Source: Escherichia coli
GTDB lineage: Bacteria; Pseudomonadota; Gammaproteobacteria; Enterobacterales; Enterobacteriaceae
Reading direction: 5' to 3' (one strand)
DNA: 64,000 bases
NCBI RefSeq assembly: GCF_002854065.1
Contig: NZ_CP024153.1
Both the position numbers and the translations under genes were made by a program. The notes beneath the pieces are model-generated. The model did no database searches. It was not told the origin of the DNA and worked only from the letters and a program-made list of their open reading frames with translations. Shown piece after piece: positions 1,981 to 59,366 of this stretch (position 1 is its first letter; every line of letters begins with the position of its first letter).

Positions 1981-2800
1981 GGCACTGTTGCAAATAGTCG
2001 GTGGTGATAAACTTATCATCCCCTTTTGCTGATGGAGCTGCACATGAACCCATTCAAAGGCCGGCATTTTCAGCGTGACATCATTCTGTGGGCCGTACGC
2101 TGGTACTGCAAATACGGCATCAGTTACCGTGAGCTGCAGGAGATGCTGGCTGAACGCGGAGTGAATGTCGATCACTCCACGATTTACCGCTGGGTTCAGC
2201 GTTATGCGCCTGAAATGGAAAAACGGCTGCGCTGGTACTGGCGTAACCCTTCCGATCTTTGCCCGTGGCACATGGATGAAACCTACGTGAAGGTCAATGG
2301 CCGCTGGGCGTATCTGTACCGGGCCGTCGACAGCCGGGGCCGCACTGTCGATTTTTATCTCTCCTCCCGTCGTAACAGCAAAGCTGCATACCGGTTTCTG
2401 GGTAAAATCCTCAACAACGTGAAGAAGTGGCAGATCCCGCGATTCATCAACACGGATAAAGCGCCCGCCTATGGTCGCGCGCTTGCTCTGCTCAAACGCG
2501 AAGGCCGGTGCCCGTCTGACGTTGAACACCGACAGATTAAGTACCGGAACAACGTGATTGAATGCGATCATGGCAAACTGAAACGGATAATCGGCGCCAC
2601 GCTGGGATTTAAATCCATGAAGACGGCTTACGCCACCATCAAAGGTATTGAGGTGATGCGTGCACTACGCAAAGGCCAGGCCTCAGCATTTTATTATGGT
2701 GATCCCCTGGGCGAAATGCGCCTGGTAAGCAGAGTTTTTGAAATGTAAGGCCTTTGAATAAGACAAAAGGCTGCCTCATCGCTAACTTTGCAACAGTGCC
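1981..2800 (+). mobile_element. IS26 copy 1 (820 bp, IS6 family)
   Basis: Terminal repeats GGCACTGTTGCAAA at both ends; 240-aa Tnp26 ORF; no 8-bp target duplication. Confidence 0.95.
2026..2748 (+). CDS. tnpA: IS26 transposase Tnp26 (Gly184 form: ...[14 protein letters not shown]...)
   Basis: 240 aa beginning [31 protein letters not shown] after the MLMELH leader. Confidence 0.95.
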
Positions 2801-3254
2801 ATTTTTCCCGATTCGACTTATTCGGGCGCTCCCCTGGCTCAAATGTGATTTCTCCATCCTCAACAGAGATCCCAGCCAGCCCCATGATAGAAAGATCCCC
2901 GGCCATTTCATCGGTGGTGCCGTTGGCGATTGCTGCCATCAGCTTTTCACGACTGGGGAAGCGATCCATCCAACTGATCCGATAGTCATCCGTCATCAGG
3001 CTTTCATATGCTTCCAAGAAGCGCCCGCCCTCAATGGCATAATCCGCCATCTTGTCGCCGGTTCGTGCTCCACCAGGTGCGCCGGTGCTGCTTGGCATTA
3101 GTCCGATAGCTTCCATGAAGTCGGCCCATTCCTTGTTGTGATAGCCACGCCGCCCAGGCTTGCCGAAATGGTGCTGCCATAGGTGGCACATTTCGTGGCA
3201 AAGCGTTTGCATAATTTCTTCGGGGGGGCATACGGCGAAGTAAGCCGGATTCAT
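2801..3254 (-). pseudogene. SprT-like zinc metalloprotease (HExxH) gene fragment, truncated by IS26; possibly mpR-like
   Basis: ORF contains HEMCHLWQHH zinc-binding motif near its start and reads into the IS26 end. Confidence 0.55.
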
Positions 3255-5343: not shown

Positions 5344-6163
5344 GGCACTGTTGCAAATAGTCGGTGGTGATAAACTTATCATCCCCTTTTGCTGATGGAG
5401 CTGCACATGAACCCATTCAAAGGCCGGCATTTTCAGCGTGACATCATTCTGTGGGCCGTACGCTGGTACTGCAAATACGGCATCAGTTACCGTGAGCTGC
5501 AGGAGATGCTGGCTGAACGCGGAGTGAATGTCGATCACTCCACGATTTACCGCTGGGTTCAGCGTTATGCGCCTGAAATGGAAAAACGGCTGCGCTGGTA
5601 CTGGCGTAACCCTTCCGATCTTTGCCCGTGGCACATGGATGAAACCTACGTGAAGGTCAATGGCCGCTGGGCGTATCTGTACCGGGCCGTCGACAGCCGG
5701 GGCCGCACTGTCGATTTTTATCTCTCCTCCCGTCGTAACAGCAAAGCTGCATACCGGTTTCTGGGTAAAATCCTCAACAACGTGAAGAAGTGGCAGATCC
5801 CGCGATTCATCAACACGGATAAAGCGCCCGCCTATGGTCGCGCGCTTGCTCTGCTCAAACGCGAAGGCCGGTGCCCGTCTGACGTTGAACACCGACAGAT
5901 TAAGTACCGGAACAACGTGATTGAATGCGATCATGGCAAACTGAAACGGATAATCGGCGCCACGCTGGGATTTAAATCCATGAAGACGGCTTACGCCACC
6001 ATCAAAGGTATTGAGGTGATGCGTGCACTACGCAAAGGCCAGGCCTCAGCATTTTATTATGGTGATCCCCTGGGCGAAATGCGCCTGGTAAGCAGAGTTT
6101 TTGAAATGTAAGGCCTTTGAATAAGACAAAAGGCTGCCTCATCGCTAACTTTGCAACAGTGCC
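5344..6163 (+). mobile_element. IS26 copy 2
   Basis: Identical to copy 1 including terminal repeats. Confidence 0.95.
5389..6111 (+). CDS. tnpA: IS26 transposase Tnp26 (Gly184 form)
   Basis: Identical 240-aa ORF. Confidence 0.95.
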   Translation: MLMELHMNPFKGRHFQRDIILWAVRWYCKYGISYRELQEMLAERGVNVDHSTIYRWVQRYAPEMEKRLRWYWRNPSDLCPWHMDETYVKVNGRWAYLYRAVDSRGRTVDFYLSSRRNSKAAYRFLGKILNNVKKWQIPRFINTDKAPAYGRALALLKREGRCPSDVEHRQIKYRNNVIECDHGKLKRIIGATLGFKSMKTAYATIKGIEVMRALRKGQASAFYYGDPLGEMRLVSRVFEM

Positions 6164-9840: not shown

Positions 9841-9958
9841 GATGTCTAACTCCCAATTTGTGTAGGGCTTATTATGCACGCTTAAAAATAATAAAAGCAG
9901 ACTTGACCTGATAGTTTGGCTGTGAGCAATTATGTGCTTAGTGCATCTAACTTTGTTT

Positions 9959-10023
9959 TAGGGCGACTGCCCTGCTGCGTAACATCGTTGCTGCTCCATA
10001 ACATCAAACATCGACCCACGGCG
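9959..10023 (-). other. attI1 recombination site of integron A (approximate)
   Basis: 5'-CS sequence ...GCCCTAAAACAAAG/TTAG... junction with the first cassette. Confidence 0.5.
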
Positions 10024-10086
10024 TAACGCGCTTGCTGCTTGGATGCCCGAGGCATAGACTGTACAAAAAAACAGTCATAACAAGCC

Positions 10087-10768
10087 ATGAAAACCGCCAC
10101 TGCGCCGTTACCACCGCTGCGTTCGGTCAAGGTTCTGGACCAGTTGCGTGAGCGCATACGCTACTTGCATTACAGTTTACGAACCGAACAGGCTTATGTC
10201 CACTGGGTTCGTGCCTTCATCCGTTTCCACGGTGTGCGTCACCCGGCAACCTTGGGCAGCAGCGAAGTCGAGGCATTTCTGTCCTGGCTGGCGAACGAGC
10301 GCAAGGTTTCGGTCTCCACGCATCGTCAGGCATTGGCGGCCTTGCTGTTCTTCTACGGCAAGGTGCTGTGCACGGATCTGCCCTGGCTTCAGGAGATCGG
10401 AAGACCTCGGCCGTCGCGGCGCTTGCCGGTGGTGCTGACCCCGGATGAAGTGGTTCGCATCCTCGGTTTTCTGGAAGGCGAGCATCGTTTGTTCGCCCAG
10501 CTTCTGTATGGAACGGGCATGCGGATCAGTGAGGGTTTGCAACTGCGGGTCAAGGATCTGGATTTCGATCACGGCACGATCATCGTGCGGGAGGGCAAGG
10601 GCTCCAAGGATCGGGCCTTGATGTTACCCGAGAGCTTGGCACCCAGCCTGCGCGAGCAGCTGTCGCGTGCACGGGCATGGTGGCTGAAGGACCAGGCCGA
10701 GGGCCGCAGCGGCGTTGCGCTTCCCGACGCCCTTGAGCGGAAGTATCCGCGCGCCGGGCATTCCTGGC
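10087..10768 (+). pseudogene. intI1: intI1 class 1 integrase, 3'-truncated by IS26 (about 227 of 337 codons)
   Basis: [53 protein letters not shown]...; ORF runs into the IS26 terminal repeat at 10769. Confidence 0.9.
10174..10202 (-). promoter_or_regulatory. Integron Pc cassette promoter, TGGACA-N17-TAAACT (PcH1-type)
   Basis: Hexamers read on minus strand inside the intI1 5' region. Confidence 0.6.
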
Positions 10769-11588
10769 GGCACTGTTGCAAATAGTCGGTGGTGATAAAC
10801 TTATCATCCCCTTTTGCTGATGGAGCTGCACATGAACCCATTCAAAGGCCGGCATTTTCAGCGTGACATCATTCTGTGGGCCGTACGCTGGTACTGCAAA
10901 TACGGCATCAGTTACCGTGAGCTGCAGGAGATGCTGGCTGAACGCGGAGTGAATGTCGATCACTCCACGATTTACCGCTGGGTTCAGCGTTATGCGCCTG
11001 AAATGGAAAAACGGCTGCGCTGGTACTGGCGTAACCCTTCCGATCTTTGCCCGTGGCACATGGATGAAACCTACGTGAAGGTCAATGGCCGCTGGGCGTA
11101 TCTGTACCGGGCCGTCGACAGCCGGGGCCGCACTGTCGATTTTTATCTCTCCTCCCGTCGTAACAGCAAAGCTGCATACCGGTTTCTGGGTAAAATCCTC
11201 AACAACGTGAAGAAGTGGCAGATCCCGCGATTCATCAACACGGATAAAGCGCCCGCCTATGGTCGCGCGCTTGCTCTGCTCAAACGCGAAGGCCGGTGCC
11301 CGTCTGACGTTGAACACCGACAGATTAAGTACCGGAACAACGTGATTGAATGCGATCATGGCAAACTGAAACGGATAATCGGCGCCACGCTGGGATTTAA
11401 ATCCATGAAGACGGCTTACGCCACCATCAAAGGTATTGAGGTGATGCGTGCACTACGCAAAGGCCAGGCCTCAGCATTTTATTATGGTGATCCCCTGGGC
11501 GAAATGCGCCTGGTAAGCAGAGTTTTTGAAATGTAAGGCCTTTGAATAAGACAAAAGGCTGCCTCATCGCTAACTTTGCAACAGTGCC
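10769..11588 (+). mobile_element. IS26 copy 3
   Basis: 820 bp with both terminal repeats. Confidence 0.95.
10814..11536 (+). CDS. tnpA: IS26 transposase Tnp26 (Gly184 form)
   Basis: Identical 240-aa ORF. Confidence 0.95.
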   Translation: MLMELHMNPFKGRHFQRDIILWAVRWYCKYGISYRELQEMLAERGVNVDHSTIYRWVQRYAPEMEKRLRWYWRNPSDLCPWHMDETYVKVNGRWAYLYRAVDSRGRTVDFYLSSRRNSKAAYRFLGKILNNVKKWQIPRFINTDKAPAYGRALALLKREGRCPSDVEHRQIKYRNNVIECDHGKLKRIIGATLGFKSMKTAYATIKGIEVMRALRKGQASAFYYGDPLGEMRLVSRVFEM

Positions 11589-11628
11589 AGACAAAAGGCT
11601 GCCTCATCGCTAACTTTGCAACAGTGCC
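11589..11628 (+). repeat. Tandem second copy of the last 40 bp of IS26 (remnant of an earlier IS26)
   Basis: AGACAAAAGGCTGCCTCATCGCTAACTTTGCAACAGTGCC occurs twice in direct succession (11549-11588 and 11589-11628). Confidence 0.85.
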
Positions 11629-12137
11629 CCCTCCCGCACGATGATCGTGCCGTGATCGAAATCCAGATCCTTGACCCGCAGTTGCAAACCCTCACTGATC
11701 CGCATGCCCGTTCCATACAGAAGCTGGGCGAACAAACGATGCTCGCCTTCCAGAAAACCGAGGATGCGAACCACTTCATCCGGGGTCAGCACCACCGGCA
11801 AGCGCCGCGACGGCCGAGGTCTTCCGATCTCCTGAAGCCAGGGCAGATCCGTGCACAGCACCTTGCCGTAGAAGAACAGCAAGGCCGCCAATGCCTGACG
11901 ATGCGTGGAGACCGAAACCTTGCGCTCGTTCGCCAGCCAGGACAGAAATGCCTCGACTTCGCTGCTGCCCAAGGTTGCCGGGTGACGCACACCGTGGAAA
12001 CGGATGAAGGCACGAACCCAGTGGACATAAGCCTGTTCGGTTCGTAAACTGTAATGCAAGTAGCGTATGCGCTCACGCAACTGGTCCAGAACCTTGACCG
12101 AACGCAGCGGTGGTAACGGCGCAGTGGCGGTTTTCAT
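11629..12137 (-). pseudogene. intI1: intI1 class 1 integrase, 3'-truncated at a different point (about 170 codons retained)
   Basis: Same N-terminus as the other intI1, ends ...[12 protein letters not shown] then IS26-end sequence. Confidence 0.9.
12022..12050 (+). promoter_or_regulatory. Integron Pc cassette promoter, TGGACA-N17-TAAACT (PcH1-type)
   Basis: Hexamers read directly in the 5'-CS. Confidence 0.6.
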
Positions 12138-12211
12138 GGCTTGTTATGACTGTTTTTTTGTACAGTCTATGCCTCGGGCATCCAAGCAGCAAGCGCGTTA
12201 CGCCGTGGGTC

Positions 12212-12277
12212 GATGTTTGATGTTATGGAGCAGCAACGATGTTACGCAGCAGGGCAGTCGCCCTAAAACAAAGTTAG
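12212..12277 (+). other. attI1 recombination site of integron B (approximate)
   Basis: 5'-CS ...GCCCTAAAACAAAG/TTAG junction with the dfrA12 cassette. Confidence 0.5.
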
Positions 12278-12281
12278 CCAT

Positions 12282-12779
12282 ATGAACTCGGAATCAGTAC
12301 GCATTTATCTCGTTGCTGCGATGGGAGCCAATCGGGTTATTGGCAATGGTCCTAATATCCCCTGGAAAATTCCGGGTGAGCAGAAGATTTTTCGCAGACT
12401 CACTGAGGGAAAAGTCGTTGTCATGGGGCGAAAGACCTTTGAGTCTATCGGCAAGCCTCTACCGAACCGTCACACATTGGTAATCTCACGCCAAGCTAAC
12501 TACCGCGCCACTGGCTGCGTAGTTGTTTCAACGCTGTCGCACGCTATCGCTTTGGCATCCGAACTCGGCAATGAACTCTACGTCGCGGGCGGAGCTGAGA
12601 TATACACTCTGGCACTACCTCACGCCCACGGCGTGTTTCTATCTGAGGTACATCAAACCTTCGAGGGTGACGCCTTCTTCCCAATGCTCAACGAAACAGA
12701 ATTCGAGCTTGTCTCAACCGAAACCATTCAAGCTGTAATTCCGTACACCCACTCCGTTTATGCGCGTCGAAACGGCTAA
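12282..12779 (+). CDS. dfrA12: DfrA12 trimethoprim-resistant dihydrofolate reductase (cassette)
   Basis: 165 aa MNSESVRIYLVAAMGANRVIGNGPNIPWKIPGEQKIFRRLTEGKVVVMGRKTFESIG... Confidence 0.93.
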   Translation: MNSESVRIYLVAAMGANRVIGNGPNIPWKIPGEQKIFRRLTEGKVVVMGRKTFESIGKPLPNRHTLVISRQANYRATGCVVVSTLSHAIALASELGNELYVAGGAEIYTLALPHAHGVFLSEVHQTFEGDAFFPMLNETEFELVSTETIQAVIPYTHSVYARRNG

Positions 12780-12890
12780 CCATTCCGTCAACGGGACGCC
12801 AAAATGCTGCGCATTTTGGTTCCCTCCGCTGCGCTCCGGCTCTCGTTACGTCCAACGTTAGCACCACTGAAACCCAGCTTTATTTAGCTC

Positions 12891-13181
12891 ATGTTTATTC
12901 AAACGGCATTTAGCTTTTCAGGCGTTATTCAGTGCCTGTTTTGCCTTTTTTCCGGGCTTCGCCTGCATGGGCTGCGCAGGTTTTCAGTCTTTTTGGCCTC
13001 TAGCCCTTGCGTAGCAAGCGCAAGCAGCTATCGTTTTTGCAGTGCTGTGCCGCCTCGGTGGCGCAGCGTTTTTTCACGGTTAGCGCCCGTCGCCAAATTC
13101 AAGTTATCCGTTTTGGCTTCTGGTTCTAACATTTCGGTCAAGCCGACCCGCATTCTGCGGTCGGCTTACCTCGCCCGTTAG
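12891..13181 (+). CDS. gcuF: gcuF/orfF gene cassette of unknown function
   Basis: 96-aa ORF between dfrA12 and aadA2, the position of the classic array. Confidence 0.75.
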   Translation: MFIQTAFSFSGVIQCLFCLFSGLRLHGLRRFSVFLASSPCVASASSYRFCSAVPPRWRSVFSRLAPVAKFKLSVLASGSNISVKPTRILRSAYLAR

Positions 13182-13186
13182 ACATC

Positions 13187-13978
13187 ATGAGGGAAGCGGT
13201 GACCATCGAAATTTCGAACCAACTATCAGAGGTGCTAAGCGTCATTGAGCGCCATCTGGAATCAACGTTGCTGGCCGTGCATTTGTACGGCTCCGCAGTG
13301 GATGGCGGCCTGAAGCCATACAGCGATATTGATTTGTTGGTTACTGTGGCCGTAAAGCTTGATGAAACGACGCGGCGAGCATTGCTCAATGACCTTATGG
13401 AGGCTTCGGCTTTCCCTGGCGAGAGCGAGACGCTCCGCGCTATAGAAGTCACCCTTGTCGTGCATGACGACATCATCCCGTGGCGTTATCCGGCTAAGCG
13501 CGAGCTGCAATTTGGAGAATGGCAGCGCAATGACATTCTTGCGGGTATCTTCGAGCCAGCCATGATCGACATTGATCTAGCTATCCTGCTTACAAAAGCA
13601 AGAGAACATAGCGTTGCCTTGGTAGGTCCGGCAGCGGAGGAATTCTTTGACCCGGTTCCTGAACAGGATCTATTCGAGGCGCTGAGGGAAACCTTGAAGC
13701 TATGGAACTCGCAGCCCGACTGGGCCGGCGATGAGCGAAATGTAGTGCTTACGTTGTCCCGCATTTGGTACAGCGCAATAACCGGCAAAATCGCGCCGAA
13801 GGATGTCGCTGCCGACTGGGCAATAAAACGCCTACCTGCCCAGTATCAGCCCGTCTTACTTGAAGCTAAGCAAGCTTATCTGGGACAAAAAGAAGATCAC
13901 TTGGCCTCACGCGCAGATCACTTGGAAGAATTTATTCGCTTTGTGAAAGGCGAGATCATCAAGTCAGTTGGTAAATGA
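13187..13978 (+). CDS. aadA2: AadA2 streptomycin/spectinomycin adenylyltransferase ANT(3'')-Ia family (cassette)
   Basis: 263 aa MREAVTIEISNQLSEVLSVIERHLESTLLAVHLYGSAVDGGLKPYSDIDLLVTV... Confidence 0.93.
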   Translation: MREAVTIEISNQLSEVLSVIERHLESTLLAVHLYGSAVDGGLKPYSDIDLLVTVAVKLDETTRRALLNDLMEASAFPGESETLRAIEVTLVVHDDIIPWRYPAKRELQFGEWQRNDILAGIFEPAMIDIDLAILLTKAREHSVALVGPAAEEFFDPVPEQDLFEALRETLKLWNSQPDWAGDERNVVLTLSRIWYSAITGKIAPKDVAADWAIKRLPAQYQPVLLEAKQAYLGQKEDHLASRADHLEEFIRFVKGEIIKSVGK

Positions 13979-14032
13979 TGTCTAACAATTCGTTCAAGCC
14001 GACCGCGCTACGCGCGGCGGCTTAACTCCGGC

Positions 14033-14132
14033 GTTAGATGCACTAAGCACATAATTGCTCACAGCCAAACTATCAGGTCAAGTCTGCTTTTATTATTTTT
14101 AAGCGTGCATAATAAGCCCTACACAAATTGGG
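14033..14132 (+). other. First ~100 bp of the class 1 integron 3'-CS, cut before qacEdelta1
   Basis: Same sequence as 6760-6858 (inverted) up to ...ACACAAATTGGG, then unrelated low-GC DNA. Confidence 0.8.
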
Positions 14133-14462
14133 TAAAACCGCAAGAACTGTAATTATGAATTTGTCAGAAAACTATCCGTACAAGGAAGTGTATGAAAAAT
14201 GTCTGGTATAATAAAGATATCATCTTGAAAATCGAGTGTTGCTCTGTGGATAACTTGCAGGGTTTAATAAGTATCTTTACTCAAAAGTTGCAATCAATAA
14301 TTTATTGAAAAAGATTGAAAGGTGGTGGTAAATAATGTTACAATGTGGGAGTATCAGTTTAAATTCTTCGTGAAATAGTGTTCTTTTAAGCTAATAAAAA
14401 ATGCACGTGGAATTTAGGTCAAAGAAAAGTAAAGAAAAATTTATTTATGGAGGTAAAAAAGG

Positions 14463-14855
14463 ATGAGTCAAGTTGTTGATTTTTTAAATGAAGCAAAAAC
14501 TTTTTATTTTGCAACCGTTGAAGGAGACCAGCCAAGGGTCAGACCGTTTAATGCAGCCATGGAGAGGAATGGCAAGGTCTATCTTGGTACAACCAATCAG
14601 AAAAAAGTTTATCAGCAGTTATTGGCAAATTCAAAGGTGGAAGTCTCAGGTATGGCAAAAGGAAAATGGATTCGGCTCACCGGCGAAGCCGTAATTGATG
14701 ATACCGTGGAAGCAAGGGAAGCAATGCTTGAAGCAAATCCGCCTTTGAGAGATTGGTATAGCGCTGATGATGGGAAATTCACCGTATTTTATTTGAAAAA
14801 CATGCAGGCAGTTTTATATTCCTTTACAGGAGATCCGGAGATATTAGATAATTAA
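14463..14855 (+). CDS. Pyridoxamine-5'-phosphate-oxidase-like FMN-binding family protein (hypothetical) in low-GC segment
   Basis: 130-aa ORF with AT-rich upstream region and RBS-like GGAGG; family assignment by general sequence character, unverified. Confidence 0.5.
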   Translation: MSQVVDFLNEAKTFYFATVEGDQPRVRPFNAAMERNGKVYLGTTNQKKVYQQLLANSKVEVSGMAKGKWIRLTGEAVIDDTVEAREAMLEANPPLRDWYSADDGKFTVFYLKNMQAVLYSFTGDPEILDN

Positions 14856-15095
14856 TCAAAACATGCAGCCCAGTGGTAGAATGAACTGACCCCCATAAGT
14901 TAGACCAAAAATCTAACTTATGGGAGGTCATTTTTTATGGCAAAATACAGTTATGAATTTAAGTTACAAGTTGTTCAAGCATATTTAGATTTTTATTTTG
15001 TCCGTTTTGTCTAGCTTACCGAAAGCCAGACTCAGCAAGAATAAAATTTTTATTGTCTTTCGGTTTTCTAGTGTAACGGACAAAACCACTCAAAA

Positions 15096-15133
15096 TAAAA
15101 AAGATACAAGAGAGGTCTCTCGTATCTTTTATT
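15096..15133 (-). terminator. Bidirectional hairpin terminator downstream of bleO
   Basis: A-run, stem GATACAAGAGAG/CTCTCGTATC, T-run read directly. Confidence 0.5.
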
Positions 15134-15174
15134 CAGCAATCGCGCCCGATTGCTGAACAGATTAATAATAGATT

Positions 15175-15552
15175 TTAGCTTTTTATTTGTTGAAAAAAGC
15201 TAATCAAATTGTTGTCGGGATCAATTACTGCAAAGTCTCGTTCATCCCACCACTGATCTTTTAATGATGTATTGGGGTGCAAAATGCCCAAAGGCTTAAT
15301 ATGTTGATATAATTCATCAATTCCCTCTACTTCAATGCGGCAACTAGCAGTACCAGCAATAAACGACTCCGCACCTGTACAAACCGGTGAATCATTACTA
15401 CGAGAGCGCCAGCCTTCATCACTTGCCTCCCATAGATGAATCCGAACCTCATTACACATTAGAACTGCGAATCCATCTTCATGGTGAACCAAAGTGAAAC
15501 CTAGTTTATCGCAATAAAAACCTATACTCTTTTTAATATCCCCGACTGGCAA
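15175..15552 (-). CDS. bleO: Bleomycin-binding protein, glyoxalase/VOC fold (BleO-like, Gram-positive type)
   Basis: 125 aa MPVGDIKKSIGFYCDKLGFTLVHHEDGFAVLMCNEVRIHLWEASDEGW... matches recalled pUB110-type Ble. Confidence 0.75.
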   Translation of the reverse strand: MPVGDIKKSIGFYCDKLGFTLVHHEDGFAVLMCNEVRIHLWEASDEGWRSRSNDSPVCTGAESFIAGTASCRIEVEGIDELYQHIKPLGILHPNTSLKDQWWDERDFAVIDPDNNLISFFQQIKS

Positions 15553-15648
15553 TGCCGGGATAGACTATTATTCTCCCCGGAGCCACTACGCTGACCCGGT
15601 TGATTTCAGAGGTAAGGGAAAAGGCGACGTTGCGCCTGTGGAACAAAC

Positions 15649-16470
15649 GGCACTGTTGCAAAGTTAGCGATGAGGCAGCCTTTTGTCTTATTCAAAGGCC
15701 TTACATTTCAAAAACTCTGCTTACCAGGCGCATTTCGCCCAGGGGATCACCATAATAAAATGCTGAGGCCTGGCCTTTGCGTAGTGCACGCATCACCTCA
15801 ATACCTTTGATGGTGGCGTAAGCCGTCTTCATGGATTTAAATCCCAGCGTGGCGTTGATTATCCGTTTCAGTTTGCCATGATCGCATTCAATCACGTTGT
15901 TCCGGTACTTAATCTGTCGGTGTTCAACGTCAGACGGGCACCGGCCTTCGCGTTTTGAGCAGAGCAAGCGCGCGACCATAGGCGGGCGCTTTATCCGTGT
16001 TGATGAATCGTGGGAATCTGCCACTTCTTCACGTTGTTGAGGATTTTACCCAGAAACCGGTATGCAGCTTTGCTGTTACGACGGGAGGAGAGATAAAAAT
16101 CGACAGTGCGGCCCCGGCTGTCGACGGCCCGGTACAGATACGCCCAGCGGCCATTGACCTTCACGTAGGTTTCATCCATGTGCCACGGGCAAAGATCGGA
16201 AGGGTTACGCCAGTACCAGCGCAGCCGTTTTTCCATTTCAGGCGCATAACGCTGAACCCAGCGGTAAATCGTGGAGTGATCGACATTCACTCCGCGTTCA
16301 GCCAGCATCTCCTGCAGCTCACGGTAACTGATGCCGTATTTGCAGTACCAGCGTACGGCCCACAGAATGATGTCACGCTGAAAATGCCGGCCTTTGAATG
16401 GGTTCATGTGCAGCTCCATCAGCAAAAGGGGATGATAAGTTTATCACCACCGACTATTTGCAACAGTGCC
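15649..16470 (-). mobile_element. IS26 copy 4 (822 bp; two 1-bp insertions)
   Basis: Both terminal repeats present; extra A at about 16010 (GGGAATCTG vs GGGATCTG) and extra T at about 15953 (GCGTTTTGAGC vs GCGTTTGAGC). Confidence 0.95.
15701..16425 (-). pseudogene. tnpA: IS26 tnpA disrupted by frameshift (split into 144-aa and 107-aa ORFs; Asn184 form)
   Basis: ORFs 15991-16425 and 15701-16024 together cover Tnp26 with a frame change between them. Confidence 0.85.
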
Positions 16471-16584
16471 TAAAAATCGACCATACAGAGAGGGAAACCA
16501 CCGGAGTGGTGGGAAAAGCAGAAAGGCTCACGTGGCATAAGGCGTGGACAATGGTATCGACTGGTTTTTCAATTTCCTATACGT
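16471..16584. repeat. 114-bp fragment identical (inverted) to the 3'-side end of the IS91-family element at 23324-23437
   Basis: Reverse complement of 16471-16584 matches 23324-23437; abuts the IS26 end on one side and GTTC-containing flank on the other. Confidence 0.8.
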
Positions 16585-16673
16585 GAACTATTGAAGTAAT
16601 CAATCAAATTTTATAGGCTGATAGCCAAGTAACAACCACCAATGATATGCCAGGTAAAATCAGGGGACGTAAA

Positions 16674-18110
16674 ATGAGTACTCTTGATGTTCAGAAGCTC
16701 AAGGATGATGCCGTCGAATGGGCCTTAACTCATGGTGTTGCTTTCAAGGAATCGTCGTATTCCGCAGTGCATACCCCGTTTACCCTGACACCAACACCTA
16801 TCAGCCGTAAATCCTATCAGTACTTAAAGAATGCAACAGGAATACTCAGCAAATTAATCTATTCAGTTTCTGAGGATCATGATTTTTTGTACTCTGCGAT
16901 TTATCCCATCAAGGCCGGGAATGCCTTCTTTTCAGCCCTCCTGAACATGCATCAACAAATCCATTCATCATCAAGGCATGCTCCTCGATTACCATTACTC
17001 ATTATGCGTAGCGACTTTATGGATGATAATCGTGATGGGTTCAGGCTTATAGAGTTCAATGGTATAGCTGCAGGAATGGGGCCGTTTGGTCAGCGGATAC
17101 ATGATCTGCATCACTATCTACAACGGCAATATCCCGCTGTCTTTTCTGATTTATCGAATCAGGCAACAGGGGCGCTTGTCGACAATCAAGCGATCGAAGG
17201 GTTATCAGCAGCGATTTGTCAGGCAACTTGCAGAATTAAGCAGGAGTTCGGAGACCCCGGCCCTGCCAGGTTCCTGATGATTGTGCAGGAGAATGAAAAT
17301 AATGTGTTTGATCAACACTTGCTTGAGCTCGCCCTCCAGCAAAAAGGAATCGAAACGCATCGCAGGACTTTTCGTGAACTGCATAATCAATTGAGTACAG
17401 GCGCCGACAACAGGCTCATTCTCGAGGGTGTAGGCCCACTTGATACCGTCTACTTACGTGCCGGATATCAGTATTCTGATTATGAAGCATTCAATATCGA
17501 TGAGCAGGAGTGTTGTCAGGCGCTGATGGCGACCCGAGTATTCATTGAGCAGCACCGGGTTGCAGTGAACGCCACAGTTGGCCAGCAACTGGCGACCAGC
17601 AAGCGAGTACAAATGCTGCTCTCGCAATTGGGTTACGACGAGTTTGTCGCATTTGGATTAACACTGCAGGAAGCTAAAATAGCAAAAACGATACTGGGTG
17701 AGATGTTACCCATCAGCCCGGATAGTATCAACCTTGCAAAAGAGTCTCCTTCGGAAACCTGGGTTCTCAAAAATCAGGGTGAAGGCGGGGGGCATTGTCT
17801 GTTTGGTGCGGATATCCTGACAAAACTGACGGAACTCACTCCACAACAATATCAGTCCTGGTCGCTGATGCGCCGTTTACACCCTCAGCCCCGAGCTATG
17901 CCCACCTTGATTGTGCGTAAAGGGGAGTTGCATAAGGTGAATGATTTGATAAGCGAACTTGGAATGTTCTCCGTGCAGACAGATAACAATCCCTCCAGTG
18001 CTGAGCACAGTTTTGCTGGATATCTAATTCGTAGCAAATCAGCTGAATCGACAGAGGGAGGGGTCCATAGTGGACAAGGTGTTTTAGACTCGCTGGTATA
18101 CAGCGATTAG
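16674..18110 (+). CDS. Eukaryotic-type glutathione synthetase-like ATP-grasp protein (ORF track start 16647)
   Basis: Blocks resembling recalled human GSS: TPFTLTPT, IEFNGIAAGMGP, LMIVQENENNVFDQ...IETHRRTFREL, VYLRAGYQ, KNQGEGGGHCLFG. Confidence 0.7.
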   Translation: MSTLDVQKLKDDAVEWALTHGVAFKESSYSAVHTPFTLTPTPISRKSYQYLKNATGILSKLIYSVSEDHDFLYSAIYPIKAGNAFFSALLNMHQQIHSSSRHAPRLPLLIMRSDFMDDNRDGFRLIEFNGIAAGMGPFGQRIHDLHHYLQRQYPAVFSDLSNQATGALVDNQAIEGLSAAICQATCRIKQEFGDPGPARFLMIVQENENNVFDQHLLELALQQKGIETHRRTFRELHNQLSTGADNRLILEGVGPLDTVYLRAGYQYSDYEAFNIDEQECCQALMATRVFIEQHRVAVNATVGQQLATSKRVQMLLSQLGYDEFVAFGLTLQEAKIAKTILGEMLPISPDSINLAKESPSETWVLKNQGEGGGHCLFGADILTKLTELTPQQYQSWSLMRRLHPQPRAMPTLIVRKGELHKVNDLISELGMFSVQTDNNPSSAEHSFAGYLIRSKSAESTEGGVHSGQGVLDSLVYSD

Positions 18111-18527
18111 TCCCTTTCAAGGGGGCTGAAATCTGGTTATATGAAAGCATGCGGTAAGTGGTGTTTTAGCCCCAGTGGAGATGATGCTGTTTCTAGACTG
18201 AGTCGTAGTAAGCTAATAATAGTATTATAAATGAAGCCATGAGGGTATTTACAGGGCATATCTTATTAAGGGAACAACAGCAAAAACTGCTGCTATAAGA
18301 GGCTGCACCCAAAGTTCTTCAAGGTTCACATCATCGCTGCTGGGTCGATGCTGTTTCAGTTACGGGTCAATTTTCAATACCATTAGCTGTTCCTGTGACT
18401 ACGGTCATTACGCGCTGTCGACATCAATTTGTACAGCAAACAGTCTTAGCGTGGGATATTTAATGAGATGGTCACTCCCTCCTTCCCGGTACTATGCTGA
18501 GGATAGGCTTTCATTCGGAGAACTATC

Positions 18528-20601: not shown

Positions 20602-21421
20602 GGCACTGTTGCAAAGTTAGCGATGAGGCAGCCTTTTGTCTTATTCAAAGGCCTTACATTTCAAAAACTCTGCTTACCAGGCGCATTTCGCCCAGGGGAT
20701 CACCATAATAAAATGCTGAGGCCTGGCCTTTGCGTAGTGCACGCATCACCTCAATACCTTTGATGGTGGCGTAAGCCGTCTTCATGGATTTAAATCCCAG
20801 CGTGGCGTTGATTATCCGTTTCAGTTTGCCATGATCGCATTCAATCACGTTGTTCCGGTACTTAATCTGTCGGTGTTCAACGTCAGACGGGCACCGGCCT
20901 TCGCGTTTGAGCAGAGCAAGCGCGCGACCATAGGCGGGCGCTTTATCCGTGTTGATGAATCGTGGGATCTGCCACTTCTTCACGTTGTTGAGGATTTTAC
21001 CCAGAAACCGGTATGCAGCTTTGCTGTTACGACGGGAGGAGAGATAAAAATCGACAGTGCGGCCCCGGCTGTCGACGGCCCGGTACAGATACGCCCAGCG
21101 GCCATTGACCTTCACGTAGGTTTCATCCATGTGCCACGGGCAAAGATCGGAAGGGTTACGCCAGTACCAGCGCAGCCGTTTTTCCATTTCAGGCGCATAA
21201 CGCTGAACCCAGCGGTAAATCGTGGAGTGATCGACATTCACTCCGCGTTCAGCCAGCATCTCCTGCAGCTCACGGTAACTGATGCCGTATTTGCAGTACC
21301 AGCGTACGGCCCACAGAATGATGTCACGCTGAAAATGCCGGCCTTTGAATGGGTTCATGTGCAGCTCCATCAGCAAAAGGGGATGATAAGTTTATCACCA
21401 CCGACTATTTGCAACAGTGCC
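20602..21421 (-). mobile_element. IS26 copy 5 (variant: Asn184 plus one synonymous change)
   Basis: 820 bp; ...KLKRIINATLGFKS... Confidence 0.95.
20654..21376 (-). CDS. tnpA: IS26 transposase Tnp26 (Asn184 form)
   Basis: 240-aa ORF; GGC to AAC at codon 184 relative to copies 1-3. Confidence 0.95.
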   Translation of the reverse strand: MLMELHMNPFKGRHFQRDIILWAVRWYCKYGISYRELQEMLAERGVNVDHSTIYRWVQRYAPEMEKRLRWYWRNPSDLCPWHMDETYVKVNGRWAYLYRAVDSRGRTVDFYLSSRRNSKAAYRFLGKILNNVKKWQIPRFINTDKAPAYGRALALLKREGRCPSDVEHRQIKYRNNVIECDHGKLKRIINATLGFKSMKTAYATIKGIEVMRALRKGQASAFYYGDPLGEMRLVSRVFEM

Positions 21422-23183: not shown

Positions 23184-23325
23184 GGCACTGTTGCAAAGTT
23201 AGCGATGAGGCAGCCTTTTGTCTTATTCAAAGGCCTTACATTTCAAAAACTCTGCTTACCAGGCGCATTTCGCCCAGGGGATCACCATAATAAAATGCTG
23301 AGGCCTGGCCTTTGCGTAGTGCACG
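23184..23325 (-). mobile_element. IS26 fragment (142 bp of one end, internally truncated)
   Basis: GGCACTGTTGCAAAGTTAGCGATGAGG...GCGTAGTGCACG matches the IS26 end, then diverges. Confidence 0.9.
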
Positions 23326-25002
23326 TATAGGAAATTGAAAAACCAGTCGATACCATTGTCCACGCCTTATGCCACGTGAGCCTTTCTGCTTTTCCCACCA
23401 CTCCGGTGGTTTCCCTCTCTGTATGGTCGATTTTTATACCGTAACAGGCTGTTTTTTATACTTTCACCGATTCCCGGGCACACTTAGCCTGTGTCAGGCC
23501 GGCATATACCTCAGTAGACTGATATCCCGCGCGTTTTTCTTCAGCCCTGATACATTCAGCCCCGCAATGGCCCGGCGGTATACCATCCGGCAGCCACACA
23601 GCACGCATTCGAACGGGTCACGACTCAGGAACTGTTTCACCATTTGTGCATAGCACACTTTCGCCACTGGTTCCGGTTTATCCATCCCCAGTGCACGGTA
23701 CACCTGCGGCAGCTTCTCTCCACACACACGGTTGGCAAGGAACCCGAAGTACCTCACCATCTTAAAAAACTTCTCCGGGATGTGCTGTTTCAGCCTCGCG
23801 ACCAGCTCACGCTGTGTCAGCGTTTCCGTCGCCGTTTCTCCCGTTTTGTGGTCCAGGTAACGGAAGCTCAGGCTTGCCCCTCCGTTGTAATGAGCCAGTC
23901 GGGAAGCCGCTATTGGTGGCTTCTTCAGATAACGACCCAGGTAGCGTGCCGTATTCCGCCCTCCGGCTGTCTTCTTCGACATGTACACATGCCAGTATTT
24001 TCCGCCGGATTTCAGCACCAGGCTTCTCCACTGTGATTCCGTCGTGATATGTGACAACGACTCCGGCATTGCCATCCCCTCTGACCACGCTTTCAGAAGC
24101 AGCTGCCGCATATTCCACATCCACCGTGAACGCATCGCGTCTTTCAGGAAGCTCAGCTTTTTCCACTGACCATGCTTATTCAGACCTCCACAGGTTACAG
24201 ACACATGTACATGCGGATGCCAGTTGAGACGACGGCCATACGTGTGGATGGCGCAGAAGATACCGGGTTCCAGCCCCCGTTTTCGGGCGGCATACAGCAG
24301 ATTCTCCACCGCCAGACGGCACACGTCATTCAGCAGCCAGCGGTTGCTTTCGAACACCGGCCACAGCGTGTCCGGCAGGGTGAAGACCAGATGTACCCAG
24401 TCGCAGTCAGGAAGACGATTCAGCTGTGTTGCTGTCCACAGGTCTGTGGCCTTCTTTCCGCAGGACGGGCAGGCACGGCTGCCGCATGAGTTGGTCAGGT
24501 ACTTTACGTGCTGACAGTCCGGGTTATCACACCCGAACTCTTTTACACCCAGTATCCGTGTGCCGCAGGCCAGCATTTTGGTGACGGCTTCAACCTCGAT
24601 ATCGCGCAGACCGCCCGCATCCAGGAAGGACGTCCAGCACTGGTTGGCTGTGAACAGACGTTTCAGAGGGCGGGGAGTAAAACCGGACAACATGAGGATG
24701 GATTAAACCCCGGTATCCTGTAGCAGGGTAAGGGCTGCTGTATCGCCACGGCGCTTCAGGATGGAGGTCGTCACCATCGCAGGTGGTGGGTCCATGGGTT
24801 TGAGCATTTTCATCCAGTCCCATTCTCGTTGTGAGAGCTTCTCAGCACCAACAGAGAGCAGAACTGTATCGATACTTTTGCGGGTCAACATAAGGGGATG
24901 AGTCCTTAATAAAACAGGTCCTCAGAGCATACATATTCTGCGGGGCGTGCGGCAACAACAGGACGAACCGGGGCGGTTTTCAATTTGCAGCCGCCAGGCT
25001 GC
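23326..25002 (-). mobile_element. IS91-family rolling-circle element (IS1294-like, about 1.68 kb); boundaries approximate
   Basis: Single HUH/Y2-type transposase ORF plus small upstream ORF; length consistent with IS1294; one end duplicated at 16471-16584. Confidence 0.65.
23494..24693 (-). CDS. tnpA: IS91-family (IS1294-like) transposase
   Basis: 399 aa with Cys-rich zinc-binding N-terminus (CGTRILGVKEFGCDNPDCQHVKYLTNSCGSRACPSCGKK), HVH (HPHVHVSV) motif and C-terminal tyrosines typical of IS91-family Y2 transposases. Confidence 0.85.
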   Translation of the reverse strand: MLSGFTPRPLKRLFTANQCWTSFLDAGGLRDIEVEAVTKMLACGTRILGVKEFGCDNPDCQHVKYLTNSCGSRACPSCGKKATDLWTATQLNRLPDCDWVHLVFTLPDTLWPVFESNRWLLNDVCRLAVENLLYAARKRGLEPGIFCAIHTYGRRLNWHPHVHVSVTCGGLNKHGQWKKLSFLKDAMRSRWMWNMRQLLLKAWSEGMAMPESLSHITTESQWRSLVLKSGGKYWHVYMSKKTAGGRNTARYLGRYLKKPPIAASRLAHYNGGASLSFRYLDHKTGETATETLTQRELVARLKQHIPEKFFKMVRYFGFLANRVCGEKLPQVYRALGMDKPEPVAKVCYAQMVKQFLSRDPFECVLCGCRMVYRRAIAGLNVSGLKKNARDISLLRYMPA

Positions 25003-27457: not shown

Positions 27458-28277
27458 GGCACTGTTGCAAATAGTCGGTGGTGATAAACTTATCATCCCC
27501 TTTTGCTGATGGAGCTGCACATGAACCCATTCAAAGGCCGGCATTTTCAGCGTGACATCATTCTGTGGGCCGTACGCTGGTACTGCAAATACGGCATCAG
27601 TTACCGTGAGCTGCAGGAGATGCTGGCTGAACGCGGAGTGAATGTCGATCACTCCACGATTTACCGCTGGGTTCAGCGTTATGCGCCTGAAATGGAAAAA
27701 CGGCTGCGCTGGTACTGGCGTAACCCTTCCGATCTTTGCCCGTGGCACATGGATGAAACCTACGTGAAGGTCAATGGCCGCTGGGCGTATCTGTACCGGG
27801 CCGTCGACAGCCGGGGCCGCACTGTCGATTTTTATCTCTCCTCCCGTCGTAACAGCAAAGCTGCATACCGGTTTCTGGGTAAAATCCTCAACAACGTGAA
27901 GAAGTGGCAGATCCCACGATTCATCAACACGGATAAAGCGCCCGCCTATGGTCGCGCGCTTGCTCTGCTCAAACGCGAAGGCCGGTGCCCGTCTGACGTT
28001 GAACACCGACAGATTAAGTACCGGAACAACGTGATTGAATGCGATCATGGCAAACTGAAACGGATAATCAACGCCACGCTGGGATTTAAATCCATGAAGA
28101 CGGCTTACGCCACCATCAAAGGTATTGAGGTGATGCGTGCACTACGCAAAGGCCAGGCCTCAGCATTTTATTATGGTGATCCCCTGGGCGAAATGCGCCT
28201 GGTAAGCAGAGTTTTTGAAATGTAAGGCCTTTGAATAAGACAAAAGGCTGCCTCATCGCTAACTTTGCAACAGTGCC
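27458..28277 (+). mobile_element. IS26 copy 6 (Asn184 variant); left arm of Tn6010-like oqx unit
   Basis: 820 bp with terminal repeats. Confidence 0.95.
27503..28225 (+). CDS. tnpA: IS26 transposase Tnp26 (Asn184 form)
   Basis: 240-aa ORF. Confidence 0.95.
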   Translation: MLMELHMNPFKGRHFQRDIILWAVRWYCKYGISYRELQEMLAERGVNVDHSTIYRWVQRYAPEMEKRLRWYWRNPSDLCPWHMDETYVKVNGRWAYLYRAVDSRGRTVDFYLSSRRNSKAAYRFLGKILNNVKKWQIPRFINTDKAPAYGRALALLKREGRCPSDVEHRQIKYRNNVIECDHGKLKRIINATLGFKSMKTAYATIKGIEVMRALRKGQASAFYYGDPLGEMRLVSRVFEM

Positions 28278-33473: not shown

Positions 33474-34293
33474 GGCACTGTTGCAAATAGTCGGTGGTGA
33501 TAAACTTATCATCCCCTTTTGCTGATGGAGCTGCACATGAACCCATTCAAAGGCCGGCATTTTCAGCGTGACATCATTCTGTGGGCCGTACGCTGGTACT
33601 GCAAATACGGCATCAGTTACCGTGAGCTGCAGGAGATGCTGGCTGAACGCGGAGTGAATGTCGATCACTCCACGATTTACCGCTGGGTTCAGCGTTATGC
33701 GCCTGAAATGGAAAAACGGCTGCGCTGGTACTGGCGTAACCCTTCCGATCTTTGCCCGTGGCACATGGATGAAACCTACGTGAAGGTCAATGGCCGCTGG
33801 GCGTATCTGTACCGGGCCGTCGACAGCCGGGGCCGCACTGTCGATTTTTATCTCTCCTCCCGTCGTAACAGCAAAGCTGCATACCGGTTTCTGGGTAAAA
33901 TCCTCAACAACGTGAAGAAGTGGCAGATCCCACGATTCATCAACACGGATAAAGCGCCCGCCTATGGTCGCGCGCTTGCTCTGCTCAAACGCGAAGGCCG
34001 GTGCCCGTCTGACGTTGAACACCGACAGATTAAGTACCGGAACAACGTGATTGAATGCGATCATGGCAAACTGAAACGGATAATCAACGCCACGCTGGGA
34101 TTTAAATCCATGAAGACGGCTTACGCCACCATCAAAGGTATTGAGGTGATGCGTGCACTACGCAAAGGCCAGGCCTCAGCATTTTATTATGGTGATCCCC
34201 TGGGCGAAATGCGCCTGGTAAGCAGAGTTTTTGAAATGTAAGGCCTTTGAATAAGACAAAAGGCTGCCTCATCGCTAACTTTGCAACAGTGCC
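33474..34293 (+). mobile_element. IS26 copy 7 (Asn184 variant); right arm of Tn6010-like oqx unit
   Basis: 820 bp with terminal repeats; same orientation as copy 6. Confidence 0.95.
33519..34241 (+). CDS. tnpA: IS26 transposase Tnp26 (Asn184 form)
   Basis: 240-aa ORF. Confidence 0.95.
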   Translation: MLMELHMNPFKGRHFQRDIILWAVRWYCKYGISYRELQEMLAERGVNVDHSTIYRWVQRYAPEMEKRLRWYWRNPSDLCPWHMDETYVKVNGRWAYLYRAVDSRGRTVDFYLSSRRNSKAAYRFLGKILNNVKKWQIPRFINTDKAPAYGRALALLKREGRCPSDVEHRQIKYRNNVIECDHGKLKRIINATLGFKSMKTAYATIKGIEVMRALRKGQASAFYYGDPLGEMRLVSRVFEM

Positions 34294-54841: not shown

Positions 54842-56062
54842 TGTAGATTCAATCTGTCAATGCAACACCCCTTTCAATTATCTCTTTCGGTGTTTTGAAC
54901 TTCAGTGTCTTTCTCGGTCTGTTGTTTAGCTGAGCAGCAACCAGATCTAGTTCATGTTGAGTATATTGGGCAAGACATGTCTTTTTAGGAAAGTACTGCC
55001 GAATTAGCCCATTTGTGTTCTCATTTGTTCCCCGCTGCCAAGGACTCTGAGGATCGCAGAAGTAAACTTTAACGCCGGTGCTGACAGTAAATTCTAGATG
55101 TCTGGCCAGTTCCATTCCTCTGTCCCATGTCAGTGATTTTCTGAGTTCTGACGGTAAACTCAGGAATTTGTCGGTAAGAGCCTGATTTACTGAGACAGAA
55201 TCTTTGCCCCTGAGTCTAAGGATGATCGTATAACGTGATTTTCGGTCTACAAGTGTGGCTATATGAGAGTTTTTTGTACCTGAGACTAAATCGCCCTCCC
55301 AATGCCCCAGAGAGCGTCTGTTATCGATATTTCGGGAACGTTCGTGAATTGGTGTTCCGTTCACTATGTTAATCGTACCTCTTTCGCCTTTGCGGGTATG
55401 ACGCCTGCCATGGCGAAGGCTATGCGACCGTCGCAGATGCTGTATATTCAGGTGGTGTAGCGCTTCACGGCTACGAAAGTACAGCGTTTTATAAATTGTC
55501 TCAGGTGATATTCGCAGCGTTTTTTGACGTGGTTTTGTTCGCCTTAACCATCCTGATATTTGCTCTGGAGACCATTTCATCTCCAGCTTTTCCAGAACAA
55601 GCTTTCGCAATGGTAAATTTTGATCCAGTAAGCACGGTTTTGGCCTTTTCGCCATTCTGTTGGCTCGGTTATTAGCATCAACAGCTTTGTAATAGCGTCT
55701 GCCCCGATTACGCTGAACTTCACGTGAGATCGTCGAAGGACTGCGATTCAGCGCAGTAGCTATCGCACGAATGCTCATTTTGGCTGACAAACCAGCTCGT
55801 ATCTCCTCGCGCTCAGACAGTGTCAGGTGAGCTACAGCCCGCTTACGCTCATGGGGTTTTATGCCGCCAGTATCCCTTAACATAGTGAAGATCGTTCCGG
55901 GTTTTGAACCCAGGATATTCGCTATTTCACTGAAGCCTGTTCCGTTCTTCCATAGTTCAAAAACAGAGGCTTTTTCCTCTGCTGTAAATGTTCATCTCAT
56001 TCAAAAAACCTCCGCAACCCCATGTTTTCACATAACTGTTGCGTTGACCAATTGAATCTACA
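54842..56062 (-). mobile_element. IS30 (1221 bp)
   Basis: Terminal repeats TGTAGATTCAAT...; no matching 2-bp target duplication (GC left, GG right). Confidence 0.9.
54849..56000 (-). pseudogene. IS30 transposase with TGA at codon 3 (ATG AGA TGA); 344-aa ORF resumes at internal Met
   Basis: Recalled IS30 Tnp begins MRRTFTAEEK...; window reads M R stop T F T A E E K in the same frame. Confidence 0.7.
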
Positions 56063-57150
56063 GGGCGGATTTCCACACAGCACCGGCGCCCGGCAAGGTG
56101 GGCCGATTTCCACACAGCACCGGTGCGCGGCAAGGTGGGCCGATTTCCACACAGCACCGGCGCCCGGCAAGGTGGGCTGATTCCCACACGGCACCGGCGC
56201 CCGGCAAGGTGGGCGGATTTCCACACAGCACCGGCGCGCGGCAAGGTGGGCTGATTCCCACACGGCACCGGCGCCCGGTAAGGTGGGCGGATTTCCACAC
56301 GGCACCGGCGCCCGGTAAGGTGGGCGGATTTCCACACAGCACCGGCGCCCGGCAAGGTGGGCTGATTCCCACACGGCACCGGCGTCCGGTAAGGTGGGCG
56401 GATTTCCACACAGCACCGGCGCGCGGCAAGGTGGGCCGATTTCCACACGGCACCGGCGCCCGGCAAGGTGGGCGGATTTCCACACGGCACCGGCGCCCGG
56501 TAAGGTGGGCTGATTCCCACACGGCACCGGCGCCCGGCAAGGTGGGCTGATTCCCACACGGCACCGGCGCCCGGTAAGGTGGGCGGATTTCCACACAGCA
56601 CCGGCGCGCGGCAAGGTGGGCTGATTCCCACACGGCACCGGCGTCCGGTAAGGTGGGCGGATTTCCACACAGCACCGGCGCGCGGCAAGGTGGGCTGATT
56701 CCCACACGGCACCGGCGCCCGGTAAGGTGGGCGGATTTCCACACGGCACCGGCGCCCGGCAAGGTGGGCTGATTCCCACACGGCACCGGCGCCCGGCAAG
56801 GTGGGCTGATTCCCACACGGCACCGGCGCCCGGTAAGGTGGGCTGATTCCCACACAGCACCGGCGCCCGGCAAGGTGGGCTGATTCCCACACGGCACCGG
56901 CGCCCGGCAAAGTGGGCGGATTTCCACACAGCACCGGCGCCCGGTAAGGTGGGCGGATTTCCACACAGCACCGGCGCCCGGCAAGGTGGGCTGATTCCCA
57001 CACGGCACCGGCGCCCGGTAAGGTGGGCGGATTTCCACACAGCACCGGCGCGCGGCAAGGTGGGCCGATTTCCACACAGCACCGGCGCCCGGCAAGGTGG
57101 GCGGATTTCCACACAGCACCGGCGCGCGGCAAGGTGGGCCGATTCCCATA
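56063..57150. repeat. Tandem array of ~29 copies of a 37-bp GC-rich repeat (consensus GGGCNGATTYCCACACRGCACCGGYGCSCGGYAAGGT)
   Basis: Period and copy variants read directly; begins exactly at the IS30 end. Confidence 0.9.
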
Positions 57151-57774
57151 TCGACATGTATGTAGCTTGTGTTATCCGTGGATTGTGCAGCTCAGCTGGT
57201 CGTATGGCGGAGTGTCCCCCGTAACCGGCCGCGTGCGGCCGCTAACGCGCAGTACGGCCCCCCCCGTGGGGGACGTGCGGCAGCTGCGTGGCGGTGAGCG
57301 GGATTAGGGCTTTGCAGCTACCGTGTTAAGTTCCCTGGTGTCGCTGAAAGAGTTGATGAACATCCCCCTAAGCGTCAGCAGCAAGCTGCCGCCGCTAAGT
57401 CCCCGGAAATCACGCCCTTTACGTCGTAAACGCCGTAAAGCCCGCTCACCGGGGTTAAAAGGGATTACTTTGACTTCTTCATTGCTGTTCGCGAGTTAAG
57501 GCTAATCAGGGCAGGGGGTAGGGTGGCAGAATTTATAGCCCGGCAACGGGCTACGCCGGGCTTTCGGCGCCATTTTACAACACAGACACATGTAACCTCA
57601 TCTGGCGCCTCCATGCCGCTGACGCGGCATTCAGAAGCTTCCCAATGCTGTAGGTTTTAACATCTGCTTTATGTCAGAAGCGGATGGTTCAGAAGCCAGC
57701 AGTTTCCAATAACAGATATAGTATCGAACCGGATACTCATGATTTTTGGGTGACGCTGCCAACTTACTGATTTA

Positions 57775-58080
57775 GTGTATGATGGTGTTTTTGAGGTGCT
57801 CCAGTGGCTTCTGTTTCTATCAGCTGTCCCTCCTGTTCAGCTACTGACCGGGGTGGTGCGTAACGGCAAAAGCACTGCCGGACATCAGCGCTATCTCTGC
57901 TCTCACTGCCGTAAAACATGGCAACTGCAGTTCACTTACACCGCTTCTCAACCCGGTACGCACCAGAAAATCATTGATATGGCCATGAATGGCGTTGGAT
58001 GCCGGGCAACTGCCCGCATTATGGGCGTTAGCCTCAACACGATTTTACGTCACTTAAAAAACTCAGGCCGCAGTCGGTAA
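57775..58080 (+). pseudogene. insA: IS1 insA with frameshift near the 5' end (canonical GTG-start frame stops after 19 codons)
   Basis: Window has CTGACCGGGG where canonical IS1 is recalled as CTGACGGGG; ORF track protein has a non-canonical 27-aa N-terminus lacking the first CxxC of the zinc finger. Confidence 0.7.
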
Positions 58081-58124
58081 CCTCGCGCATACAGCCGGGC
58101 AGTGACGTCATCGTCTGCGCGGAA

Positions 58125-58502: not shown

Positions 58503-59366
<864 letters not shown>

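Follow-up and report, generated by a model that had tools for sequence, protein, structure and literature searches.

Among the described counterparts of the element reported here are copies of IS26 that were frameshifted on purpose. Tnp26 depends on three essential catalytic residues, which Harmer et al. 2014 number D82, D142 and E177 (PMC4196232). Engineered frameshifts in tnp26 abolished the formation of copy-in cointegrates. Targeted conservative cointegration was about 30-fold lower when only the partner copy was intact, the mutant copy still being targeted, and was abolished when both copies were mutant (PMC4196232). Excision of a translocatable unit needs Tnp26 from one particular flanking copy (PMC4676283), and the Tnp26 activity of the participating copies matters for which translocatable units can move (PMC4196232, PMC4676283). 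A natural allele, IS26-v1, is defined by three nucleotides different from IS26 and the substitution G184N, with enhanced activity reported (PMC9412624). A second body of work concerns sequencing errors: the Polypolish paper found that most of the errors left after short-read polishing lie in repeats, an example in its benchmark being a homopolymer difference in a six-copy insertion sequence, ISAba1 (PMC8812927). Nanopore read errors induced by base modification are also reported (PMC11610603).

We analysed a 64,000-nucleotide stretch of an Escherichia coli contig (NZ_CP024153.1), hereafter the window, a resistance-plasmid region that includes a multi-IS26 resistance island. The 14-bp terminal repeat of IS26, GGCACTGTTGCAAA, occurs 16 times in the window, resolving into seven full elements and two lone ends (Table 1). 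Copies 1-3 are identical to one another and represent canonical IS26, while copies 4-7 have three changes in common relative to copies 1-3, one silent and a GG->AA dinucleotide giving G184N; in reference IS numbering these marker nucleotides are positions 459 and 613-614. Copy 4 is thus an IS26-v1 by definition, with three nucleotide differences, two of which give G184N. Since it has the v1 nucleotides of copies 5-7, its exact comparator is the IS26-v1 allele and not copies 1-3: it is identical to the v1 allele at 820 of 822 positions, and three more nucleotides differ from the canonical copies. Along the island, the canonical copies flank the qnrS2 and aac(6')-Ib-cr/blaOXA-1/catB3/arr-3 segments, and the v1 copies flank the glutathione-synthase/rep, aph(3')-IIa and oqxAB segments. 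This segregation of the two alleles fits an island that accreted module by module, each unit arriving with an IS26 of its own.

Table 1 Coordinates of the IS26 copies of the window and of the features of copy 4 and its surroundings
Feature	Coordinates	Strand	Description	Source
IS26 copy 1	1981-2800	+	820 bp	
IS26 copy 2	5344-6163	+	820 bp	
IS26 copy 3	10769-11588	+	820 bp	
IS26 copy 4	15649-16470	- (tnp26 strand)	822 bp, IS26-v1 with two 1-bp insertions	
IS26 copy 5	20602-21421	-	820 bp	
IS26 copy 6	27458-28277	+	820 bp	
IS26 copy 7	33474-34293	+	820 bp	
Copy 4, left terminal inverted repeat (upstream of tnp26)	16457-16470	-	GGCACTGTTGCAAA, intact, 0 mismatches	
Copy 4, right terminal inverted repeat	15649-15662	+	GGCACTGTTGCAAA, intact, 0 mismatches	
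Copy 4, insertion 1	16015-16016		+ strand GGGATCTG -> GGGAATCTG, A1->A2	Alignment of IS26 copies and orthologues
Copy 4, insertion 2	15953-15956		+ strand GCGTTTGAGC -> GCGTTTTGAGC, T3->T4	Alignment of IS26 copies and orthologues
Copy 4, IS26-v1 diagnostic dinucleotide	15855-15856		IS strand GG->AA, G184N	
Copy 4, third IS26-v1 marker nucleotide	16011			Alignment of IS26 copies
Copy 4, N-terminal ORF	15991-16407	-	Native ATG at 16407, 138 aa (144 aa from upstream TTG)	
Copy 4, C-terminal ORF	15701-16024	-	GTG start, 107 aa	
Flank of copy 4, bleO side	15641-15648		GAACAAAC	Junction common to the window and p14EC017b
Flank of copy 4, glutathione-synthase side	16471-16478		TAAAAATC	Junction common to pBY68-1 and pTB222
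Private -1/+1 indel pair	14872-14875		Non-coding, between PNPOx-family gene and bleO; window CCCAGTGGTAG, relatives CCCAAGTGTAG	

When aligned in the same orientation, copy 4 differs from copies 5-7 by exactly two inserted single bases and is otherwise identical. From inverted repeat to inverted repeat it measures 822 bp, where IS26 has 820 bp. On the IS strand, insertion 1 changes CAGATCCC to CAGATTCCC after IS position 454 and shifts the frame after Tnp26 residue 132, and insertion 2 changes CTCAAACG to CTCAAAACG at about IS position 513. Because each adds one base, the net shift is +2 and the tnp26 frame is never restored. The alignment and the ORFs thus bear out a sequence-only reading of this stretch, which had described copy 4 as an 822-bp element with an extra A and an extra T that leave tnpA in two ORFs. 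The same reading took both insertions for homopolymer-length changes, which is true only in a loose sense: the T3->T4 event lengthens a run of three, and the A1->A2 event doubles a single base and destroys a GATC site. Neither insertion falls within the A5 and T5 runs that are the longest homopolymers of IS26.

The 138-aa product consists of native Tnp26 residues 1-132 followed by TIHQHG and a stop, and it retains the helix-turn-helix-like region at the N-terminus, which Pfam HTH profiles match weakly, and, of the catalytic residues, just the first Asp. The 107-aa product consists of 23 non-native residues followed by native residues 151-234 (84 residues), with the catalytic Glu and N184 included. 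The Pfam profile DDE_Tnp_IS240, matched over positions 4-139 in the intact copy 5, is matched over 4-56 and 78-139 in copy 4, which has no single 234-aa Tnp26 ORF spanning the whole DDE domain. When numbering starts at the Met of the 234-aa product, the catalytic residues D82, D142 and E177 become D78, D138 and E173; in copy 4, D78 lies in the first ORF, E173 in the second, and D138 in neither. Since the second catalytic Asp falls in the out-of-frame stretch 133-150, no active Tnp26 would be expected from copy 4 if the lesion is real. By analogy with the engineered mutants, such a copy would be predicted to lack copy-in activity, to take part at a reduced level in targeted conservative cointegration with an intact partner, and to persist as a passive target for the Tnp26 of its neighbours and as a substrate for homologous recombination. 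Taking the insertions at face value, one would annotate copy 4 as an IS26 pseudogene and leave it out of any reasoning about translocatable units. If they are errors, all seven IS26 copies of the island are active, and four of them represent the more active v1 allele. Even if real, the lesion would be private and recent and would inactivate a single IS copy, an unremarkable kind of event that is already known, and the question matters mainly for data hygiene.

The orthologues of copy 4 in three other plasmids, pBY68-1 (CP090213.1), p14EC017b and pTB222, are all intact 820-bp elements, with no sign of an inherited lesion. The alignment of pBY68-1 to window positions 15648-18461 has 2,814 columns with no mismatches and 2 gaps, which are the two insertions, and that of p14EC017b to positions 11589-16470 has 4,883 columns with no mismatches and 4 gaps, which are the two copy 4 insertions and a -1/+1 pair at 14872/14875. 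The orthologue in pTB222 likewise lacks both insertions. Within copy 4, the two insertions are thus the sole differences from the orthologues in the three plasmids, over alignments of 2.8-4.9 kb that cover both junctions. No 100% match to the 822-bp element was found in PLSDB or in 5,426 complete E. coli genomes. A 111-bp query over both sites reached at best 98.2% in all 21,914 IS26 places of these genomes, a ceiling which means that the two insertions together are absent from those places; as no record reached 99% or more with this query, not even one of them occurs there on the v1 background. Scans for the exact pattern of each insertion in metagenome contigs and species-representative genomes gave no matches (four of four scans). 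The possibility that these exact bases are the site of a recurrent systematic error, or that they mark a circulating allele, was rejected, since no other occurrence was found in those collections.

These comparisons bear directly on the reading that copy 4 has genuinely decayed, i.e. that it really gained two +1 insertions and is now a dead IS26-v1, which we think unlikely. In its favour, the sequence does contain the extra bases, and elsewhere the window is highly accurate; a second frameshift would be neutral once the first was present; other public records, pTB222 for one, have IS26 copies annotated as frameshifted; and engineered tnp26 frameshifts behave as predicted for a dead copy (PMC4196232). 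However, the lesions would have to be private and very recent, with orthologues otherwise identical over 2.8-4.9 kb, and both alleles are absent from some 22,000 further copies of IS26 and from metagenome contigs.

To place the insertions among the other differences of the record, we took a census of private differences by aligning the window to the loci of ten relatives, which covered 59,781 window bases. The census script missed the two IS26 insertions, the placement of a gap in a run being ambiguous. Over the bases covered, the private differences are two substitutions (at 7378 and 50906, both silent) and four 1-bp indels. The indels are all confined to 14872-16016, a span of 1,145 bp without any private substitution, and the remaining 58 kb holds the two substitutions and no private indel. 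The chance that three to four uniformly placed events would fall inside 1,145 bp is about 1e-3 to 3e-5. Besides the two insertions, this patch comprises the pair at 14872/14875, a variant absent from 466 full-length PLSDB matches, all of which read CCCAAGTGTAG. A -1 and a +1 placed 3 bp apart, as here, are typical of a consensus slip. In the E. coli mutation-accumulation lines described by Lee and colleagues in 2012, small indels were reportedly about tenfold rarer than substitutions. At such a ratio, four indels and no substitutions in 4.9 kb would be unexpected for real change. Genuine decay would thus have to account for two +1 events 60 bp apart and for a -1/+1 pair 1.1 kb off, with zero substitutions, and this at sites neither of which is a long slippage-prone run. 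It would also have to do so without a template for mutation, as there are no direct or inverted copies of the mutated 8-9-mers within 400 bp on either side; templated mutagenesis or gene conversion was rejected on this ground and for the lack of accompanying substitutions. Two further candidate causes of the patch were considered. Low GC shows no consistent link with it, the GC content being about 33% at 14872 and 52-54% at the IS26 sites. An assembly that is indel-ridden throughout was rejected, as there are no internal indels in the 21.8-kb sil backbone compared with the closest relative and none elsewhere in the 58 kb.

The sequence does contain the insertions, they are private to it, and the private changes of the patch are clustered and consist of indels alone; from this we infer an origin in sequencing or assembly. 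The two copy 4 insertions are, we consider, probably residual consensus errors and not real decay. The sequence-only reading had left the matter between genuine decay and sequencing error, and that framing was right, although private insertions, a local spectrum of indels only, a third indel event nearby and intact orthologues now lean it clearly toward error. The proposed course of events is that copy 4 would be an ordinary IS26-v1 (G184N) between the dfrA12-aadA2-PNPOx-bleO and the glutathione-synthase/IS4321/rep modules, and that a local patch at about 14.87-16.02 kb may have escaped accurate polishing. The polishing could have been poor at least partly because IS26 is present in at least seven copies, in which short reads are not uniquely placeable. 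The real DNA would then contain IS26-v1 at its usual 820 bp, with tnp26 intact and encoding 234 aa, and the frameshift would be biologically without consequence. Three points count against an artefact. Since the six other IS26 copies and 58 kb of sequence are free of private indels, a very localised failure must be assumed. The insertions avoid the A5 and T5 runs, where long-read errors usually concentrate. Finally, whereas the two insertions lie inside IS26 (at least seven copies), the pair at 14872/14875 lies outside any sequence repeated within the window, so that an unpolishable repeat alone does not explain the whole patch; repeat polishing does not account for the pair unless its module is duplicated elsewhere in the genome.

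An instructive comparison is offered by the only public protein identical to the 138-aa product, GHL28925.1 of E. coli ECZU25 (contig BNFS01000003.1). There, another base change leads to the product, namely C3->C4 in the neighbouring GATCCC, and a second IS26 of the same contig has a -1 (C3->C2) in the same GATCCC run; the indels of these two IS26 copies lie 1-3 bp from insertion 1 of copy 4. Over the locus fetched from BNFS01000003.1 (locus positions 1-20417) nearly all genes are fragmented, among them tetA, tetR, intI1, Tn3 tnpA and two of the three IS26 copies, and GHL28925.1 and the neighbouring "hypothetical proteins" are probably indel-error artefacts. The fetched loci contain 24 full-length IS26 copies, and of these only copies in the ECZU25 contig have frameshifting indels. 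One other copy, in pBY68-1 (CP090213.1; positions 2293-3115 of locus L004), has gained 3 bp in frame (CGT, following IS position 393) and is annotated with a 235-aa transposase, WP_232579878.1, which may be a genuine length variant.

Truncated transposases that act as regulators exist in other IS families, and the 138-aa fragment resembles them. One could therefore speculate that the lesion is both real and functional, the fragment binding IS26 ends as a trans-dominant inhibitor of the six other copies and thereby stabilising the seven-IS26 island. The fragment does retain the helix-turn-helix-like region (weak Pfam HTH matches) as well as the native promoter and start. Nevertheless, we regard this as very improbable: the allele is a singleton without conservation, the same product occurs in ECZU25 from another base change in an error-rich contig, and every argument for an artefact applies here as well.

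Copy 4 lies between a segment with an intI1 fragment, dfrA12, aadA2, PNPOx and bleO, and a segment with glutathione synthase, an IS110-family element (IS4321) and rep. There is no 8-bp target-site duplication at copy 4, the two flanks reading GAACAAAC and TAAAAATC; IS26 copies within arrays usually lack one, such a duplication being expected only after a simple copy-in insertion. On the bleO side, pBY68-1 (locus L004, 7469-7522, against window 15648/15649) has 47 extra bp between the flank and IS26, which start with TGGCACTG, a sequence resembling the IS26 end GGCACTG. Sequencing noise was rejected as the source of this difference, as p14EC017b has exactly the shorter junction of the window, and the difference is therefore a real structural variant that the window shares with p14EC017b. 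The shorter junction of these two would fit a deletion next to IS26 in an ancestor common to both. The island holds further traces of rearrangement. Directly after copy 3, at 11589-11628, the last 40 bp of the IS26 right end are repeated, followed at 11629-12277 by a 649-bp inverted duplicate, 100% identical, of the intI1 5' region (9947-10595); p14EC017b has the same arrangement from 11589 onward. At 23184-23436, a 142-bp IS26 right-end fragment is joined to an inverted copy of 16471-16590 (120 bp, 99.2%), which ends exactly at the position abutting IS26 in copy 4. Such a structure resembles a scar left when IS26 earlier rearranged the same segment, the one flanking the left end of copy 4.

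It is conceivable that the culture was heterogeneous around copy 4, with variants produced by IS26 rearrangement, and that a consensus drawn through the mixture gave the indels. The patch does span a junction-rich area, and the rearrangement remnants of the island (the 40-bp end duplication and the 142-bp fragment) would suit such a history. Yet both junctions of copy 4 match known plasmids exactly. We consider a mixed population extremely improbable, and it is in effect a sub-case of the residual consensus error that we favour.

The suspicion of error does not extend to the other insertion sequences of the window. The sequence-only reading had applied the same caveat to changes in IS1 and IS30, which was not borne out: IS1 (57749-58516) and the IS30-like element (54842-56062) are 100% identical in AP027801.1, CP053738.1 and CP041629.1, three plasmids sequenced independently by different groups, so that their departures from the reference are inherited and not errors of this record. 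The transposase ORF of the IS30-like element is N-terminally shortened, its frame opening with ATG AGA TGA. Abutting this element, at 56063-57148, is a tandem array of 29.4 copies of the 37-bp unit GGGCGGATTTCCACACGGCACCGGCGCCCGGCAAGGT (91% matches), whose copy number varies among relatives, as judged from their alignments restarting at different offsets.

Among known systems, copy 4 has the diagnostic nucleotides and the perfect 14-bp repeats of IS26-v1, and differs from it in its length of 822 instead of 820 bp and in its interrupted tnp26. With the ECZU25 IS26 (BNFS01000003.1) it has the 138-aa product in common; it differs in the base change, and its setting is unlike that of the ECZU25 copy, which lies on the dfrA side in a contig of mostly fragmented genes. 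The constructs IS26-FS-L and IS26-FS-R of Harmer, Moran and Hall 2014 (PMC4196232) are similar to copy 4 in combining intact inverted repeats with a frameshifted tnp26. Their lesions were made in vitro, one a duplication of 4 bp that leaves a 30-aa product and the other a deletion of 13 bp that leaves one of 187 aa, whereas copy 4 has two 1-bp insertions, a 138-aa product and a lesion whose reality is doubtful. Although copy 4, unlike the ISAba1 homopolymer case (PMC8812927), has two changes, a nearby pair in sequence unique within the window, and short runs (1->2 and 3->4), the two cases are alike in that a multi-copy insertion sequence differs in length by single bases in just one of its copies, within an otherwise essentially error-free assembly.
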